NCBI GenBank assembly: GCA_964406435.1
Contig: CAYORY010000001.1
Location: forward strand, 1-38,760
DNA from: an uncultured Roseivirgaceae bacterium
Lineage (GTDB): Bacteria > Bacteroidota > Bacteroidia > Cytophagales > Cyclobacteriaceae
Direction: 5' to 3'
Length of the DNA stretch: 38,760 nt
In this document: positions 3,422 to 30,196 of the stretch, piece after piece
Position numbering within the stretch: the stretch's first letter is position 1
How the letters are laid out: each line of letters opens with the position of its first letter
Program-made: the position numbers and the translations under genes
The notes under the pieces: generated by a model
What the model was told of the DNA's origin: nothing
Seen by the model: the letters and a program-made list of their open reading frames with translations, nothing else
The model's database searches: none

Positions 3422-3542
3422 GCCCGTGCTTTTTCATTTTCTTTTTTGTCAGCGTTGGGGCAGCCGTACTCTTTGGCAAGTTTTGGCTTGTGTGGCTGCT
3501 TTGAGCGACTTGCCAATGTGTATGGATGCTTGCGGTTGCCAT

Positions 3543-6500
3543 TTAGTATCGTTCCAAGAATCTCCGTTGTCTTTCCCAGTCACCACTTTTTAAACAGCTT
3601 TCTATTCGCTCATTCAAATATTTCTTAATCGGGAGTAGTTTTATTCCCATTTGAGACTTATTGACTATAGCGAGAATATTTCGCCAGTCAGCTGCCTCAA
3701 TGTCTGCAAGTATTACATCCCCTGTTCCACTCGTTCCACTTCCTCTCCACATGATTTTGGAAAAAACCCCAACTTCCTGATTTATGGAAAGAAACAGCAA
3801 TAGCATTTCTTCAAATACTTCCTTCATTGAATGTCTTGCGATGTCCACAGCAACATTTACTTTTTGATGATCACTGTTGTTTGCTCGTACAAACTGAAAT
3901 AGAAAGTCCTTTGCCTTTTCCTTTGAATCTTCTGGTATATTTCTAAAGAAGGAGTTACAGAAGTGGTCGAGAATTCCGAAGTATGGTTCTCGCTCAATTA
4001 CTAAATCAAACACTTCAGTCAACACTGGTTCAATGCCATCTACTTGCCAAACAAATCCTAATCTTCTGTGATCTCCCGATAATCCAAATTTTCTTTCTGA
4101 GAATAAACTTTCTACGTATTCCATTAAGAACTGAGGGTCTTGCTTTAGAATGTTGAACATTCCTTTCCCTTCATAGTCAAAGTGGTTGTGAATCTTATCT
4201 TGTTGGATATACGCTTTCTTGATTAGGTCAATGTTATCCCCCAATTTGTCAAAATGAGTGCTGAAAAAGTCCATCCAAACCTGCAAGCCTGTGCCGTTCT
4301 CATTTTTCTCTACAATTTTTCTCAGAACAACTTGAAACAGGTTGGGTTCAATTGATAGAAACCGTTGCAGCCTGTCAAAATGGACTGTGTTCGAACCACT
4401 CATATTGCTTACCGTGTTCACTATAGCGTCAACGTAGCCCTTAGTCAGCAATGAATCCTCCAAATAATCGTAGAACGATAGCTCCCAATGAGCTTTAAGA
4501 TTGAAATCTTTACTTTGGATTATTGCCCAAATGTGCTCTGAAGATTCTGCAGTTTTCAGATGGTTTCGAAATACAACTCTCGGAATGTAATTTATTGTGT
4601 TATCAATTGCGATAACCTGATTTAATAGTTCACAGCCCAAATGAAAATCAAGACTGCAATTTTCGTCAATCACGAAATCAAGTGAATTATTATAATTCCA
4701 TTCATTCTTAGCTTTCTCCTTCAAGAACGTGAAAACTTTGATGAATTCTTCTACCTCAGTCCTTGTTTTGAAAACAAACGAAGTTCTTATTTCAGCTTCC
4801 TTCAGTCTTTCGTACTCTCGATAATCTTCGTATTCGTACATTTCCTTATCACGCAATATATCCCAATCAATTTTTAAATAGGTTTCGTAATCTGCATTGG
4901 TAAATGACTCTGCTAATGATGAAAATGAAGGGTGCAAAACAGAGTTCCTCTTACACCATCTTATCTGTTCGTGAACATACCTACAGTGTTCGAAATTATC
5001 GGGTGATAAATGCCTTTCAATTATGTCAATAACGTAAGGAACATCAAATTCCATTACCTCCCTAAGCACGTCTGGACTTACACTGGCATAACTCTGAAGG
5101 AGGCTGAAAGACTCGGCAGGAGAGTTGTTGAAGTCGTTTGCTACCGACACCCAAATATTTTTTCGGAACTCCTGGATTTCTTGACTATTTGGAATGGGAT
5201 ACTCATACCAATAAAACGAGTGATTGCGGCCTCCTTTTGTGTGTCGGAATTTGAAGGATAAAAATGTTTTAGATAATTCATAAAAAATAGAGGCACAGAG
5301 GTTGTCCTTTTTGTTTAAACCATCCAATAGTATTTGAAACAAAATTGACTGTCTTGCAAATCTGAACCTCTCATCATCTCTGTCAAACAGAAGCTGCTCA
5401 CGAATTTTGTGAATCAGTTCCGGTACATGCTCCGGCTTTTTCCGTACATATTCAATAGCCAATTCTAATGCATCGTTTAGATTGTTTGGAAATCGAAAAA
5501 ACTCTCCAAGCAACTCAATGACTTTATTCTTTTCATATGAAAAAGCATTGTTCTCATAAGTCACCTCAAAGCTTTCAGAAGTGGCATTTTCTAATGATTC
5601 TATAATGCCATAAATAAACGCCAATGATTCAGTTGACAGATAATACCAAAAAGCCGACAGAAATTTGAACCCTTTTTCTTCGTCATTCTTGATAGACTTC
5701 CAATGGTTTTGCAGATGTGGACGCAGTTTGTCCATTACTTTTTGCACTCCAAACGTGTTGTTTGCCGGAATCACACAATCTTTGAAGCGACTACTGTTGC
5801 TATCAAAATATTTACTCAGCAATACTTCAAATGAAAGTAGATTGTCCTTGATGAATGCCTTATAGAAGAAATAGGTTGATAAATTTTGCTCAGGAATTTT
5901 CACATGTTCAAACTGTATTTCAACCAATTCCAGTTTGTCTAGTTTATCTATAGCATCTATAAAGTGTGCATAGTCAATTTCAAAATTGTCAAGTATGGAG
6001 GTCACTAATTCCTTGTTCTTGTATGGGATGGTATAGAAGAATGCAATCAGACCAAGGCAGTTAATATTCAAGTCTTTCGCAAACTCCCCATCATCCTTGA
6101 TAAACGTTGAGAAGTAGTTTTCAAATAAATCTGATACATCTGCCAAGGCATATATATTCTGTTCAGCCTTTGCAAGTAGGGCAGTCATTATTGCCAATCG
6201 CGGATTTCCATCCGCAATGCGAACAATTTCATTGTGATAATCCTGATTTAGAATTTCGAAAGGCGTTGCCTTAACAATATCCGTAATCTGCTCATCTGAG
6301 AACTTGGATAAGTCTATTCTTTTGGGCGAAAATTCTTGACATAGTATTCCAATATCTTGGAACGCATAGTCTCTGACTGTAATCAGAATCTTTAACTTGC
6401 CTTTTTGGGTTGCTCTATAAAAAGTTGTTATTTGATTGAAAGCATCAATCCTATTTGCATCATCAACGAAAAGTATATGGTCCTTTTCGGAATCGAAATA

Positions 6501-7265
6501 CTGAAACAAATCATCGAGTAGTGTATGATGCTTATACGAAACACAATAAGCATCAAATTCATTGTTCTCCGCAAGGAATGCTTTTATCGCTTCGAGAGCT
6601 AATTTGGTTTTGCCAATTCCTGGCGCACCAGTCAGAATAATAAAATCATTCTGATGTATTGATTCGTTGAGGGTCTTGAGTTCTTCTTCCCGATGCAGGA
6701 ACGTATTATCAAGAGGGGTAGAGATGCCCGCGGATGCCTTGTTGTATTCTGCAATGAATTTTTCTATTGAAACAATTTGTCCAGTGTCTAATGGTAACCC
6801 CAAATACTCGTGGGTTAAATCCCTATGGTTCAAATGGAGTTCTATTGCCAACCAATCCAGATTGTAAATAGTAAGTACAATTCGGGTGTTAGCCAAAAGG
6901 TCATTTAACGCTTTTGTTTCCTTTGCTTTAGGATTGAAATTGACACAAAGAATAATCTCGGCTATTTGATTTACAGGAATGCCAGTCTTCGATTCATTGA
7001 GGCACTTTTGTACATCTTTTTTTAACTTGGAGAATCCATCTGAAACATTTGTAGAATGTTCAACGAAAATGAACTTACCATTTGGAAGAAGCAAAAAGGT
7101 ATCGGGAGTACCAGGTACAGTTTTCTGTTTGCCACTTTGGCTCCCGGCTCTTACTAAAGCCGAATAGTTACTATTCCTCAAAGCAAGAAAACTATCGCAT
7201 AACTCTTGGAAAGCAGCCGAGTTAATTGCTTTTAAAGCTTCTTCTATTGATTGTAGTCTACTCAC
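3543..7265 (-). CDS. STAND-class P-loop NTPase with a nuclease-like N-terminal domain and a long helical C-terminal domain (Avs/NLR-like candidate defence protein)
   Basis: 1240-aa ORF. Walker A is LTGAPGIGKTKLA (GAPGIGKT = nt 6606-6629). Walker B is HILFVDDANR (aa 263-272). A GxP-type motif, ADGNPRLAIM (GNPRLA = nt 6192-6209), resembles the NB-ARC GLPLA motif. The N-terminal about 170 aa contain PGTPDTF...FIFVEHST, reminiscent of PD-(D/E)xK nucleases. The C-terminal about 850 aa are helix-rich, with no catalytic motif seen. Confidence 0.85.
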   Translation of the reverse strand: MSRLQSIEEALKAINSAAFQELCDSFLALRNSNYSALVRAGSQSGKQKTVPGTPDTFLLLPNGKFIFVEHSTNVSDGFSKLKKDVQKCLNESKTGIPVNQIAEIILCVNFNPKAKETKALNDLLANTRIVLTIYNLDWLAIELHLNHRDLTHEYLGLPLDTGQIVSIEKFIAEYNKASAGISTPLDNTFLHREEELKTLNESIHQNDFIILTGAPGIGKTKLALEAIKAFLAENNEFDAYCVSYKHHTLLDDLFQYFDSEKDHILFVDDANRIDAFNQITTFYRATQKGKLKILITVRDYAFQDIGILCQEFSPKRIDLSKFSDEQITDIVKATPFEILNQDYHNEIVRIADGNPRLAIMTALLAKAEQNIYALADVSDLFENYFSTFIKDDGEFAKDLNINCLGLIAFFYTIPYKNKELVTSILDNFEIDYAHFIDAIDKLDKLELVEIQFEHVKIPEQNLSTYFFYKAFIKDNLLSFEVLLSKYFDSNSSRFKDCVIPANNTFGVQKVMDKLRPHLQNHWKSIKNDEEKGFKFLSAFWYYLSTESLAFIYGIIESLENATSESFEVTYENNAFSYEKNKVIELLGEFFRFPNNLNDALELAIEYVRKKPEHVPELIHKIREQLLFDRDDERFRFARQSILFQILLDGLNKKDNLCASIFYELSKTFLSFKFRHTKGGRNHSFYWYEYPIPNSQEIQEFRKNIWVSVANDFNNSPAESFSLLQSYASVSPDVLREVMEFDVPYVIDIIERHLSPDNFEHCRYVHEQIRWCKRNSVLHPSFSSLAESFTNADYETYLKIDWDILRDKEMYEYEDYREYERLKEAEIRTSFVFKTRTEVEEFIKVFTFLKEKAKNEWNYNNSLDFVIDENCSLDFHLGCELLNQVIAIDNTINYIPRVVFRNHLKTAESSEHIWAIIQSKDFNLKAHWELSFYDYLEDSLLTKGYVDAIVNTVSNMSGSNTVHFDRLQRFLSIEPNLFQVVLRKIVEKNENGTGLQVWMDFFSTHFDKLGDNIDLIKKAYIQQDKIHNHFDYEGKGMFNILKQDPQFLMEYVESLFSERKFGLSGDHRRLGFVWQVDGIEPVLTEVFDLVIEREPYFGILDHFCNSFFRNIPEDSKEKAKDFLFQFVRANNSDHQKVNVAVDIARHSMKEVFEEMLLLFLSINQEVGVFSKIMWRGSGTSGTGDVILADIEAADWRNILAIVNKSQMGIKLLPIKKYLNERIESCLKSGDWERQRRFLERY

Positions 7266-7272
7266 GATGATT

Positions 7273-7989
7273 TTAAATAAGCTTGTTAAGTTCGATTTTT
7301 AGCGAGTCCTTGAGTGTTTTTGAATCGGAATAGATTAAGAATCTTTGAGATTGGATATCAATAGGCAGATCTTTAGGTTCCTTTGAAATTAGTATGACTG
7401 ATTTGTCCAGTGCTTGAGCCACCCCAAGCTCATATAAGACATTAGGATTCCTTCCATTAATGTTAGCTATTATGATTCTTGCCTTGACCATATACCTAAG
7501 CATTTCAGGGAATATATCACCCTTAAACTCTTGTTCATCTCCTCTGATGCAATTAAACCCTGCACTTGAACAAACCTCCTTGATGGTCATAAACTCATTA
7601 TAAAATTGGCTATTAAAAGGAGTTAAGACAAAAACCAATCTGTTATCGATTTTAAGTTCATTCTCAGATATTCCATTTGCCTGAAGAAATTCGGAATAAT
7701 GAATTCTTCGATTAGTGCCCAAAGACTGATTATTTTCAAGATATTCCTGTCGTAGTAAAAGATGATTAACATCCCTCCATCGTTCTTCATTTTGCACTAA
7801 TCTGTCATTTAGTCCATACATTTTTTGCTCAAGAGAATGCCTTATGCTTTCAAGCATGGCCTTATTTTCTTCGCTATCATATCTGCTTTTCTTGAGATTG
7901 GAGTACAAAATGAAAGCTATTACACTAACGGAAATGCTTGCAATTGCTGTTATGATTATCGTAATGCTGCTAATTTCCATTTGACTCAT
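7273..7989 (-). CDS. membrane-anchored protein with a C-terminal nucleoside 2-deoxyribosyltransferase-like / TIR-like domain
   Basis: This is ORF 7273..8028; the likely start is MSQMEISS (ATG 7989-7987) or MEISS (7980). It has one N-terminal TM helix (ITIIITAIASISVSVIAFILY) and a coiled-coil linker. The domain (aa 129-240) reads VFVLTPFNSQ...KARIIIANINGRNPNVLYELGVAQALDKSVILISKE...LPIDI. The NVxYExG motif, with Glu at nt 7429-7431, is typical of that fold. Confidence 0.75.
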   Translation of the reverse strand: MSQMEISSITIIITAIASISVSVIAFILYSNLKKSRYDSEENKAMLESIRHSLEQKMYGLNDRLVQNEERWRDVNHLLLRQEYLENNQSLGTNRRIHYSEFLQANGISENELKIDNRLVFVLTPFNSQFYNEFMTIKEVCSSAGFNCIRGDEQEFKGDIFPEMLRYMVKARIIIANINGRNPNVLYELGVAQALDKSVILISKEPKDLPIDIQSQRFLIYSDSKTLKDSLKIELNKLI

Positions 7990-8392
7990 TTTTTGGTTCG
8001 ATATTCTCAATTTGGGCTTTTTCTTCACTATTCAACAGAATATCCATTGATTGTATTAAGGAGAAAATTGATATTGCCATATTCAAACAAAGTAGAAGCA
8101 CCCAGTAGTTGCTTTTATTTTCAAATAGCTTTAAACTTTTTCGCCACAAAATCACAACTACAACGGCCAGAACGATAAAAGCAATCGTGTAGAATAGCCC
8201 CGCACTCGGGTCTTTAGGTTCAGATATAGTAAATGCAATTAGAAATGATATAGAAAGGAAAATCATGTCAACCGGCAGTTCGCATATTGCCTGAATTAAA
8301 TTGGGAACCTCAATGTTTCTGTCAATCGCCAGTTTCAGAACGAATGCTAATACAAGCAATGTCAGGGGTAATATTATTTCCAAATGTTCCAT
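7970..8392 (-). CDS. small integral membrane protein (about 4 TM), first gene of the three-gene cassette operon
   Basis: 140-aa ORF starting MEHLEIILPLTLLVLAFVLKLAI. Four hydrophobic segments are followed by an acidic/polar tail. Its stop overlaps the start region of the next gene, which suggests translational coupling. Confidence 0.6.
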   Translation of the reverse strand: MEHLEIILPLTLLVLAFVLKLAIDRNIEVPNLIQAICELPVDMIFLSISFLIAFTISEPKDPSAGLFYTIAFIVLAVVVVILWRKSLKLFENKSNYWVLLLCLNMAISIFSLIQSMDILLNSEEKAQIENIEPKNESNGN

Positions 8393-8518
8393 TTATCTCA
8401 TTTCAGTTATTCTGTCGAGCGTTGGCAAAAAAATAGCTCTTTTGGTTTTTCTTGCGTTGGCTCTGCGTGTCTGCAAAAACCAAATGTGCTATTTGTGCGG
8501 TCGGCTTTTTTGCATGGC

Positions 8519-8758
8519 ATACAACATTAATATAACGCGCACAGTGCGCGTTATTTCCATTTCATATTTTCGAGTGGTTACAGACCTATCTTTCTGATAG
8601 TCAGTGATAAATCCAAGTAATAAACGTTTGTAAGCGTTTATTGTCGGATATAAGCGCCACTCTCCCCACCAAGATAGCACCTATTCATGAATGACGGGGT
8701 GGTCGAGAACCTTTCGTATACCTAGGCGTCACTGAGCGTTTCGCCCCCATCGTTAACT
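8519..8758 (-). repeat. attC-like recombination site F (240 nt; outermost site of the array)
   Basis: The ends are ATACAAC (8519-8525) and GTTAACT (8752-8758). The right half is homologous to attC-A/C: GGTCGAG at 8701-8707 versus 1778-1784, CACTGAG at 8730-8736 versus 1808-1814, and a CGCCC..CGTTA end. It contains a perfect 11-bp-stem palindrome, ATAACGCGCAC-A-GTGCGCGTTAT, at 8532-8554. It is more diverged than A-E. Confidence 0.6.
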
Positions 8759-28758: not shown

Positions 28759-30196
28759 ATGAAGACTATTGACGATTTTTCCTTTGCCGACAAGAAAGCC
28801 CTCATCCGCGTTGACTTCAACGTGCCTCTCAACGAGAACTTTGAAGTGACTGATCAAACGAGATTGAAAGCCGCAGTTCCAACTATTCTTAAAATCTTGG
28901 CTGATGGAGGAAATCCAATCTTAATGAGCCATTTGGGCCGACCAAAAGGCGGTCCTGAGGATCGATATTCATTGAGACACGTCATTCCTGCGTTGAGCGA
29001 TTTGCTGGCAACCAATGTGAAATTTGCCAATGACTGTGTGGGCGATGTGGCGGTGGAGATGGCTGCCGGATTAGAAGAAGGAGATGTGTTGCTTTTGGAG
29101 AATGTTCGATTCTATAGTGAAGAGGAAAAAGGGGACGAAGGATTTGCTAAAAAGCTTGCCAGGCTTGGAGACATCTACGTGAATGACGCATTCGGAACGG
29201 CGCACCGTGCACACGCTTCCACGACTATCGTAGCAAAGCATTTCACTGACAAATGCTGCGGCTATGTGATGAGAAATGAGCTTGAGAATGCAAAGAAAGT
29301 GCTCGGTGGAGCTGGCTGCCGGATTAGAAGAAGGAGATGTGTTGCTTTTGGAGAATGTTCGATTCTATAGTGAAGAGGAAAAAGGGGACGAAGGATTTGC
29401 TAAAAAGCTTGCCAGGCTTGGAGACATCTACGTGAATGACGCATTCGGAACGGCGCACCGTGCACACGCTTCCACGACTATCGTAGCAAAGCATTTCACT
29501 GACAAATGCTGCGGCTATGTGATGAGAAATGAGCTTGAGAATGCAAAGAAAGTGCTCGGTGGAGCAGAGAAGCCTTTCACGGCAATAATGGGTGGTGCTA
29601 AGATTTCTGACAAGATTTTGATCATCGAGAAGTTGCTCGATAACGTGGACAACCTGATCATTGGAGGAGGAATGTCCTACACGTTTTCTAAGGCCAAAGG
29701 AGGCCAAATCGGCGATTCCCTTTTGGAAGCGGACAAGATGGAATTGACCAAAGAAATTGAGAAGAAAGCGGCTGAAAAAGGCGTGAAATTGTTCTTGCCT
29801 GTGGACACTGTAATTGCTGATGATTTCAACAAAGACGCTAAAACAGATACCGTAAAAGCAGGTGAAATTCCTGATAACTGGCAGGGTCTGGACATTGGTC
29901 CTGAGACGGTGAAACTTTTCGCTTCAGTGATCGAAGGTTCTAAAACTATTCTTTGGAATGGCCCGATGGGTGTATTCGAATTCCCTGCATTTGCCAAGGG
30001 AACGGATGCCATCGCTGAGTCCGTTGTGAAAGCAACCAAGGCAGGTGGATTCTCCCTTATCGGAGGAGGTGATTCCGCCTCTGCGATCAATAACCTCGGC
30101 TATGGCGATGACGTGAGCTACGTTTCCACCGGAGGAGGTGCTTTGCTTGAGTACATGGAGGGCAAGGTGCTGCCAGGAGTTGCGGCGCTAGACTAA
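28759..30196 (+). pseudogene. pgk: phosphoglycerate kinase interrupted by a perfect 253-bp internal tandem duplication (frameshift), or an assembly artefact
   Basis: ORFs 28759..29370 and 29276..30196 are both PGK. The first reads RVDFNVPL...MSHLGRPKG...[14 protein letters not shown]. The second reads GGAKISDKI...GGGMSYTF...WNGPMGVFE...GGGDS. Removing one 253-bp copy restores a single 394-aa ORF. Confidence 0.9.
29060..29565 (+). repeat. Perfect direct tandem duplication, 2 x 253 bp (29060-29312 and 29313-29565)
   Basis: The two copies appear identical base for base when read side by side. GGTGGAG lies just 5' of copy 1 (29052-29058) and near the end of each copy (29305-29311, 29558-29564). 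Confidence 0.95.

Follow-up and report, generated by a model that had tools for sequence, protein, structure and literature searches.

The P2-like phage AC1 carries a TIR and transmembrane-protein system that protects against lambda, LF82_P8 and P2 (PMC9122126), and the nucleoside 2'-deoxyribosyltransferase (NDT)-like effectors of type II retrons (Ec86) require dimerization and deplete adenine nucleotides (10.1101/2023.08.16.553469). A role as NADase effectors has been proposed for DrHyd domains, cyclic ADP-ribose (ADPR)-type signals can be made by both DrHyd and TIR enzymes, and inactive members of the TIR, DrHyd and SLOG groups act as sensors (PMC9503650). The locus that we compare with these systems lies in a 38,760-nucleotide stretch of DNA from an uncultured Roseivirgaceae bacterium (contig CAYORY010000001.1, positions 1 to 38,760; the window), where a minus-strand gene encodes a single-pass membrane protein with a C-terminal NDT-like domain, preceded by a gene for a small protein with four hydrophobic helices (the four-transmembrane partner) and followed by a gene for a large STAND NTPase (Table 1). 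We read the first two proteins as a membrane module whose cytoplasmic N-glycosidase would cleave NAD+ or nucleotides when triggered, in defense against phages, and which in one Bacteroidota clade has been joined to an Avs-like STAND; taken as a whole, this reading has in our judgment an even chance of being correct, and its parts differ in strength, as set out below. The known NDT, DNPH1 and BcmB/MilB enzymes (PF05014) are soluble, metabolic proteins of about 130-170 amino acids (aa), with the same alpha/beta fold and the Y-E-L-G nucleophile motif at the equivalent position, whereas the window protein adds to this a transmembrane anchor, a conserved juxtamembrane helix and the four-transmembrane partner, and its RGDE and GRNxN motifs are specific to its own family.

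Assignment of the C-terminal domain is carried by its fold. In the AlphaFold2 model, where the predicted local distance difference test score (pLDDT) is 76-92 across most of this domain, it takes the three-layer alpha/beta fold with a five-stranded parallel sheet seen in solved NDT and DNPH1 structures, and in a Foldseek search against the PDB the top 24 matches were all NDT, DNPH1 or BcmB (E 1.5e-5 to 7e-4, target-normalized TM-score 0.52-0.77). Best among them was the Chroococcidiopsis NDT (CtNDT, 8qc0, E 1.5e-5); the other top matches include the NDTs of Bacillus psychrosaccharolyticus (BpNDT, 6evs), Desulfotalea (DpNDT, 7o62) and Trypanosoma (TbNDT, 2a0k), human and rat DNPH1/Rcl also fall within the top 24, and the CMP N-glycosidase BcmB (4jen) reaches a target-normalized TM-score of 0.77. 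Sequence identity to these solved structures is just 14-20%. Apart from this superfamily, the top 50 PDB matches contain one fold, the flavodoxin-like domain found in flavodiiron proteins. In the viral structure library BFVD, Foldseek returned a CMP/hydroxymethyl-CMP hydrolase and NDTs, with, in fifth place, a protein that carries the name of a Cap12/PycTIR TIR-like domain, and the Pfam profile PF05014 was matched by 24 of the 24 aligned family members (best E 2.8e-6). Judged by model and matches, the domain is a divergent member of the NDT/DNPH1 (DrHyd) branch of the TIR-DrHyd-SLOG class. The first-pass annotation had placed it in the NDT-like clade from an ordered set of motifs (VFVLTPF, GDEQEF, ARIIIANI, NPNVLYELGVAQALDKSVILI and LPIDI), which the translation of the open reading frame (ORF) contains in that order, and had held that best matches to unrelated flavodoxin-like folds without the catalytic Glu would speak against this placement; the best matches lie instead within the NDT clade, and the placement stands.

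We took as a mark of membership in this branch a nucleophile Glu at the start of the helix that follows strand 4 (E98 in LlNDT, E104 in DNPH1). The putative equivalent in the window protein is E184, which phmmer, the family profile (hmmsearch) and hhalign all align with the catalytic nucleophile E104 of DNPH1 (NVLYELG against GVGYELG); the hhalign comparison, with human DNPH1, aligned just the core 45 columns. E184 is 100% conserved over 99 diverged representatives, each from a separate 50%-identity cluster, as the first-pass annotation had anticipated in calling this Glu invariant, and F117, L119, P121, F122, R146-G-D-E149, G176-R-N178, N180, V181, Y183, L185, G186, K193 and D208 are, with E184, conserved at 91-100%. 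A polar pattern of this kind is typical of an active enzyme and not of a degenerate binding domain, and catalytic activity is accordingly what we expect, as a prediction from the alignment.

The same residues bear on a reading in which the domain is no enzyme at all. CBASS, Pycsar and Thoeris II often employ transmembrane effectors whose gate is a nucleotide-binding domain, and the NDT-like domain might in like manner bind a nucleotide as SLOG and STING do and gate a channel made of its own transmembrane helix and the four-transmembrane protein; sensing by inactive relatives in the class is on record (PMC9503650). Such a sensor seems to us very improbable, because even widely diverged relatives keep the nucleophile Glu and the whole set of polar residues unchanged and because no cyclase, CD-NTase or TIR signal-maker is conserved beside the two-gene module.

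The description of the domain as TIR-like holds in the broad sense of the TIR-DrHyd-SLOG class and fails in the narrow one. Neither the TIR Pfam families (PF01582 and PF13676, and the ThsB-type PF08937) nor the Cap12/PycTIR family PF10137 matched the window protein (E <= 1) or any of the 24 members (E <= 0.1), and no TIR structure occurs among the top 50 PDB matches. Having matched neither TIR Pfam nor TIR structure, the protein was rejected as a canonical TIR. One relative (P0003) is named as a Cap12/PycTIR TIR-like domain in UniRef. As a separate observation, in a Bacteroidota metagenome-assembled genome (MAG) the pair of genes lies directly downstream of a gene for a 480-aa protein (L026:7818-9260) with the N-terminus PRLFIGSSVEGL, which by eye we take to be a TIR-like domain of the Cap12/PycTIR type.

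The limits of the gene itself need a word. The longest ORF at the flagged interval runs from 7273 to 8028 on the minus strand (251 aa, GTG start at 8028), and it is in this numbering that the first-pass annotation had named a transmembrane helix at aa 19-43 (the hydrophobic stretch ISSITIIITAIASISVSVIAFILYS) and a catalytic E200, the E184 of our 235-aa numbering. Because the window gene product (P0001) has 235 aa and its homologues, mostly of 232-241 aa, align from MEISS, the true start is most likely the ATG at 7980 (MEISS..., 235 aa) rather than 7989 or 8028. We found 378 homologues at E <= 1e-3 in a protein collection at 90% identity; at E <= 1e-30 an exhaustive profile search of 50%-identity clusters returned 290, almost all of them covered over the full length, and at E <= 1e-10 it returned 8,038 that have the enzyme domain in common. 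By this measure of conservation the ORF is a real, conserved gene and not a chance one.

North of the enzyme domain, in the direction of its N-terminus, the AlphaFold2 model (24 homologues in the alignment, mean pLDDT 73.7) has a helix at aa 5-33, the anchor, a long helix at aa 36-75 and a poorly defined stretch at aa 76-110, after which the beta-alpha-beta domain begins. The single hydrophobic helix precedes a KK.R cluster, and on a positive-inside reading we therefore place the enzyme domain in the cytoplasm; the predicted topology is N-out/C-in (type-III-like). The membrane tether, the single transmembrane helix and the C-terminal alpha/beta domain were all in the first-pass annotation; its charged, putatively coiled-coil linker of about 80 aa needs revision, being helical only at aa 36-75, and conserved there. 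Over the 99 representatives R47 is conserved at 100% and E51 at 99%, with N72 and L74 also well conserved, and closer relatives share the block NDRLxQNEERWRDVNHLLL. The juxtamembrane helix thus ranks, on the alignment, among the best-conserved parts of the protein and is a functional segment, no mere spacer; the low confidence of the model at aa 36-75 would be as expected for a segment that requires a partner.

A candidate for that partner stands immediately upstream, in a gene that the first-pass annotation overlooked and that proves to be the universal companion of the NDT-like gene. Its stop codon falls within the first codons of the NDT-like gene (ATGGAAATTAG), and this overlap suggests translational coupling. 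From contigs taken at one genome per species we collected 79 related loci, 31 of them with a full-length gene and enough upstream DNA to judge; in 28 of these 31 a small polytopic ORF ends within about 90 nucleotides (nt) of the NDT-like start, mostly overlapping it or no more than about 25 nt away. BLAST detects partner fragments in two of the three exceptions (L007 and L019), and in the third (L034), a high-GC locus, the partner is masked by an over-long ORF. The pair occurs in Bacteroidota, Gamma- and Alphaproteobacteria, Actinomycetota (Solicola), Bacillota (Rossellomorea), Chloroflexota (Dehalococcoidales), NC10, Acidobacteriota (Holophagaceae) and others, including a Bacillus albus plasmid on which both genes are annotated 'hypothetical protein' and insertion sequences (IS) and prophage remnants lie nearby. 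Pairwise identities of the NDT-like protein and of the partner correlate (r = 0.90). Partner sequences carry the motif E-L/V-P-V-D at the start of helix 2 (ELPVD in the window, aa 38-42, nt 8267-8281) and W-R/K-x-S after helix 3, both of which would face the cytoplasm by the positive-inside rule; Pfam, NCBIfam, PADLOC and PHROGs offered nothing usable for the partner and no informative name. From the conservation of the partner at 28 of 31 loci it follows that the pair, and not the single gene, is the unit, and on this neighborhood evidence the four-transmembrane protein is an obligate partner of the NDT-like protein.

Two sets of variants were seen among relatives of the NDT-like protein. About a quarter of the best full-length relatives (P0293-P0326) are longer at the C-terminus by 90-300 residues, and these additions are of several unrelated kinds: one (P0313) has a CHAT protease domain, two share a small beta-rich domain weakly like DnaJ-like_C11_C, and the remaining additions have no Pfam match. 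At other loci (L036-L069) there are fused proteins of 520-590 aa, with an N-terminal region of six to nine transmembrane helices, a helical segment and the same NDT-like domain (GRNPNVLYELGIA), in Nitrosomonas (N. communis, L052:8804-10414), Methylomicrobium/Methylococcaceae, Accumulibacter and others. These may be a single-chain counterpart of the two-gene module; in a BLAST comparison of their membrane part with the four-transmembrane partner we obtained noise and no homology.

How such a module might work can be laid out in steps, of which we infer the defense role, the substrate, the trigger, the physical interaction of the two proteins and the direction of control; what the data show are the architecture, the fold, the conserved residues of catalytic type, the pairing of the genes and the separability of pair and STAND. 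The NDT-like and four-transmembrane proteins would form a complex in the inner membrane, where the juxtamembrane helix (R47, E51, RWxDVNHLL) and the partner motifs (ELPVD, WRxS) would keep the enzyme domains separated or inactive. A membrane-level trigger, for example phage entry or membrane perturbation, would let the enzyme domains dimerize or oligomerize, as active sites of the NDT family require. The active enzyme would then cleave the N-glycosidic bond of NAD+ or of a nucleotide, starving the cell or the phage in a defense of the abortive-infection type. In one Bacteroidota clade, to which the window belongs, the pair has been united in one operon with an autonomous Avs-like STAND that has its own nuclease-like effector, giving a compact, horizontally moving three-gene cassette. 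A bolder form, possible in our view but doubtful, is that the pair is an autonomous and widespread immune module of a kind not yet described, which senses an event at the cytoplasmic membrane (entry of the phage genome, loss of potential) and switches on the N-glycosidase, and which in Bacteroidota is wired to an Avs-like STAND in a cassette that would watch both membrane and cytoplasm. By analogy with DNPH1 and MilB, a narrower variant of this bolder form would have the enzyme destroy phage-specific modified nucleotides (hydroxymethyl-dUMP or -dCMP) instead of NAD+, so that the cell would be protected and not killed.

The gene content allows the roles to be turned around. The NDT-like domain might act in the manner of ThsB and TIR proteins and make a nucleotide-derived messenger, on which the four-transmembrane protein would kill as a pore or depolarizer. 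The same scheme was proposed for the AC1 TIR and transmembrane proteins, whose gene content this locus resembles (PMC9122126), the capacity of DrHyd and TIR enzymes for cyclic ADPR-type signals is documented (PMC9503650), and the four-transmembrane protein is conserved and always present. We nevertheless consider this arrangement quite unlikely: the four-transmembrane protein has about 140 aa, short loops and no recognizable ligand-binding domain, and the phage collection gave no similarity at E <= 0.01 beyond a domain fragment. Direct contact is also simpler than a diffusible signal, because both proteins are membrane-embedded and translationally coupled.

The third gene of the window operon raises the question of whether the pair belongs to the STAND. 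The AlphaFold2 model of the first 195 STAND residues (pLDDT 78) has as its best Foldseek match, a weak one (E 6e-3, query-normalized TM-score 0.46), the N-terminus of Avs4 bound to phage portal (8dgf_B), followed by Mus81/XPF, Card1, EcoT38I and a bunyavirus (SFTSV) endonuclease, and from these matches we assign it a restriction-endonuclease-like fold; in the alignment D55 (TPD), E69 (VE) and K80 are invariant. No Pfam, NCBIfam or PADLOC profile matched the C-terminal part (aa 331-1240; 3543-6275, minus strand), and STAND length is nearly constant (1238-1245 aa in most relatives). This part of about 900 residues is presumably the ligand-sensing region.

It could be, then, that the three genes form one integrated system, with the STAND as a cytoplasmic sensor of phage proteins and the pair as its downstream or parallel effector arm, and the first-pass annotation had suggested that the NDT-like protein could act together with the STAND or downstream of it. 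The three genes are closely packed (a gap of 7 nt on one side, an overlapping start on the other), the STAND directly follows the pair in 14 of the fetched Bacteroidota loci and in Empedobacter, and pairwise identities of the NDT-like protein and of the STAND correlate (r = 0.80), although simple co-transfer also predicts correlated divergence. Yet the STAND has a restriction-endonuclease-like N-domain of its own, like Avs4; lone STAND genes, 62-67% identical to that of the window, occur without the pair in Fluviicola, Lewinella, Fibrella and one metagenome contig; and about 19 loci outside the Bacteroidota clade, in other phyla, have the pair but no STAND. The pair and the STAND are thus separable, the claim of the first-pass annotation was too strong, and an integrated system is in our estimate unlikely. 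On this distribution the STAND looks to us like an autonomous Avs-like unit which became linked to the pair in a single Bacteroidota lineage, with functional cooperation between the two possible.

Two of the STAND loci deserve separate mention. In Fibrella sp. the STAND (67% identical) is preceded not by the pair but by a gene for an unrelated, soluble, coiled-coil-looking protein of 115 aa (L083:5639-5986), and is flanked by a TonB-dependent receptor and a methyltransferase, resembling the surroundings in the window. A Hanamia sp. MAG (L018:9512-10540) lacks the four-transmembrane gene and one third of the NDT-like gene, at its 5' end, but keeps an intact STAND; it is a natural 'STAND only' derivative in which the missing part is replaced by a 138-aa ORF that, by eye, we take to resemble an IS200/IS605-type transposase.

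Table 1. Features of the three-gene operon and its borders (positions in the window; aa numbering of the 235-aa product for the NDT-like protein).
Feature	Position	Strand	Basis
Gene for NDT-like single-pass membrane protein, 235 aa	7273..7980	minus	ORF list, homologue lengths and alignment, AlphaFold2 model
N-terminal transmembrane helix (predicted), aa 5-33, then NLKKSRY	7882..7968	minus	AlphaFold2 helix; hydropathy peak at aa 6-24
Conserved juxtamembrane helix, aa 36-75, motif EERWRDVNHLLL	7756..7875	minus	Alignment, conservation, AlphaFold2 (low pLDDT)
NDT/DrHyd-like alpha/beta domain, predicted cytoplasmic, aa 112-235	7276..7647	minus	Foldseek against PDB and BFVD, PF05014, conservation
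Codon of putative nucleophile Glu, E184	7429..7431	minus	Alignment with DNPH1 E104 in YELG
Upstream partner gene, 140 aa, four hydrophobic helices	7970..8392	minus	ORF; four hydropathy peaks
Downstream STAND NTPase (nSTAND3), 1240 aa, starting 7 nt past the NDT-like stop	3543..7265	minus	PF20720, E 2.7e-11
STAND N-terminal restriction-endonuclease-like domain, aa 1-160	6786..7265	minus	AlphaFold2 and Foldseek, weak match
Imperfect hairpin, 22-nt arms (82% complementary), 14 nt past the STAND stop	3460..3529		Inverted repeat
Two inverted repeats in the 395-nt gap between the SDR gene and the partner gene	8431..8567		Repeat search

Several observations weigh against the reading of the pair as a triggered, membrane-bound N-glycosidase of defense. 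The window protein misses the gathering threshold of PF05014 (20.8 against 28.8 bits, E 4e-4), a threshold that at least one relative passes (P0293, 29.3 bits); since the score is below threshold and the threshold is reached by some relatives, we treat the protein as a divergent branch of the NDT family and no core member. For the Tyr of strand 1 that partners the Glu in NDT and DNPH1 no equivalent was located, the profile alignments stopping short of strand 1, and it is Phe that is invariant in and after that strand (F117, F122), with no conserved Tyr there. In NDT and DNPH1, 2'-deoxy specificity is associated with a Tyr that forms a hydrogen bond to the Glu, and NAD-cleaving TIRs carry Phe or Ala at the Tyr-equivalent position (PMC11204291). 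The interaction of the two proteins and the step of autoinhibition are conjecture, and the partner could equally be the effector, as a pore, instead of the sensor. The gene neighbors in the window are ordinary (SDR, TonB-dependent receptor, two-component system, outer-membrane protein, proteins sorted by the type IX secretion system) and form no defense island; many of the 150 genes that flank the pair in 28 other loci are housekeeping; and neither the 50,697 phage records nor IMG/VR contain the family at full length. A tblastn search of those phage records gave two weak domain matches, in Streptococcus prophages, and relatives of the enzyme domain are present in phage and IMG/VR collections and in PHROGs (phrog_3634, E 2e-19). 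With relatives in the phage records and IMG/VR at the level of the domain only, a phage-borne origin of the gene was rejected.

Ordinary window neighbors (SDR, TonB-dependent receptor, outer-membrane protein) and nearest solved structures that are metabolic enzymes are what one would find if the locus had no part in conflict, and served housekeeping as nucleoside or nucleotide salvage or modified-base clearance (DNPH1- or MilB-like), or were an addiction pair resembling a toxin-antitoxin system. We regard this as the least probable of the readings considered here. The family has a patchy distribution across phyla, and the cassette (about 3500-8500) is a low-GC island (36-39% GC against 39-50% in its flanks); one copy sits on a plasmid among IS and prophage remnants; the pair is accompanied by an Avs-like STAND and, at times, by other defense genes; family members carry variable C-terminal fusions; and a salvage enzyme has no obvious need of a membrane anchor and a dedicated four-transmembrane partner. 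Recurrent membrane tethering and modular variation of the kind seen in the family are typical of conflict systems. Defense genes among the 150 flanking genes comprise MkoA (twice), AriA (twice), PtuA, a type II-A retron reverse transcriptase with its NDT effector, methyltransferases and PDC-M34/M62 candidates; integrases occur there as well, and AbiTii and AIPR genes lie near two of the STAND loci.

At the borders of the operon, the hairpin downstream of the STAND may mark the operon end. Of the two inverted repeats upstream of the partner gene, the first has 20-nt arms (8431-8450 and 8475-8494) and the second is a perfect palindrome with a 10-bp stem, ATAACGCGCAC-AGT-GTGCGCGTTAT, at 8532-8554; they could be a terminator of the SDR gene or a regulatory site or operator of the cassette. 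A search for flanking direct repeats, as the ends of a mobile element, gave short, chance-level repeats only, and a sigma-70 promoter scan, with a model that does not cover Bacteroidota promoters, stayed at the level of shuffled sequence. Elsewhere in the window, the gene for phosphoglycerate kinase is split into overlapping plus-strand ORFs (28759-29370 and 29276-30196), the first of which has about 175 normal residues before its tail leaves the frame, a frameshift that reflects an assembly error or marks a pseudogene.

If the model of a membrane-held N-glycosidase holds, it adds a membrane-resident branch to the immune effectors that cleave NAD+ or nucleotides (TIR, SIR2, retron NDT), one whose control would lie with a dedicated small membrane protein instead of a diffusible signal or soluble sensor. 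Numbering at least 290 clusters at 50% identity across many phyla, the family is a large one and has no entry in the defense-system models that we searched. The pair and the Avs-like STAND, which occur both alone and together, offer a test case for whether the fusion of immune modules into an operon creates cooperation, and they would provide a first functional handle on the poorly studied defense cassettes of Bacteroidota.

We found no description of the pair in searches of open-access text and PADLOC v2 (2023), and no PADLOC system model covers it, so that comparison with known systems has to be made part by part. The type II retron effectors (Retron-Eco1/Ec86, Sen2 RcaT) likewise use an NDT-superfamily domain as a dimeric defense effector, but are soluble, with a DNA-binding lobe in place of the transmembrane anchor; the window protein gave no hit to the PADLOC NDT_II-A model at a cutoff as loose as E <= 1, Pfam found no reverse transcriptase domain in the window ORFs submitted to it, the operon being made up of the four-transmembrane, NDT-like and STAND genes only, and a retron effector was rejected on these two counts. 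Every member tested matched the PADLOC profile PDLC00733 (a CBASS effector labeled TIR) at E 3e-7 to 2e-10, over about 80 residues around the NPNV-YELG helix that correspond to the last, C-terminal quarter of the 388-position profile; the CBASS family differs from the window protein in its N-terminal architecture, and no CD-NTase lies near the window gene. Neither a signal-maker (CD-NTase, cyclase, ThsB) nor ThsA was found in the window or as a recurrent gene among the 150 neighbors of the 28 loci, and assignment to CBASS, Pycsar or Thoeris was rejected because there is no signal-making enzyme nearby and only the domain core matches the CBASS profile.

The system of AC1, which we take to be the one that DefenseFinder names Rst_2TM_1TM_TIR, is the closest analogue at the level of the system, in that a small operon combines an enzyme of the TIR class with small membrane proteins; it has three separate genes, whereas in the window the enzyme itself bears the single transmembrane helix and has one four-transmembrane partner. 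We detected no homology to AC1: the two weak domain matches were the only ones in the phage collection, and no PADLOC system model was hit, the presence of AC1 in either resource being unconfirmed. The STAND shares with Avs4-type STANDs a restriction-endonuclease-like N-domain (an effector-like domain by a weak match), a central P-loop NTPase (PF20720), a long C-terminal region and the ability to stand alone as a gene, and differs from Avs4 in a catalytic motif of the form D...E-x-(S/T) in place of the canonical D...(D/E)xK and in a C-terminal sensor unrelated to Pfam. Set beside these systems, the enzyme chemistry and the STAND neighbors of the locus rate as familiar, and its membrane-embedded arrangement of two proteins rates as new.

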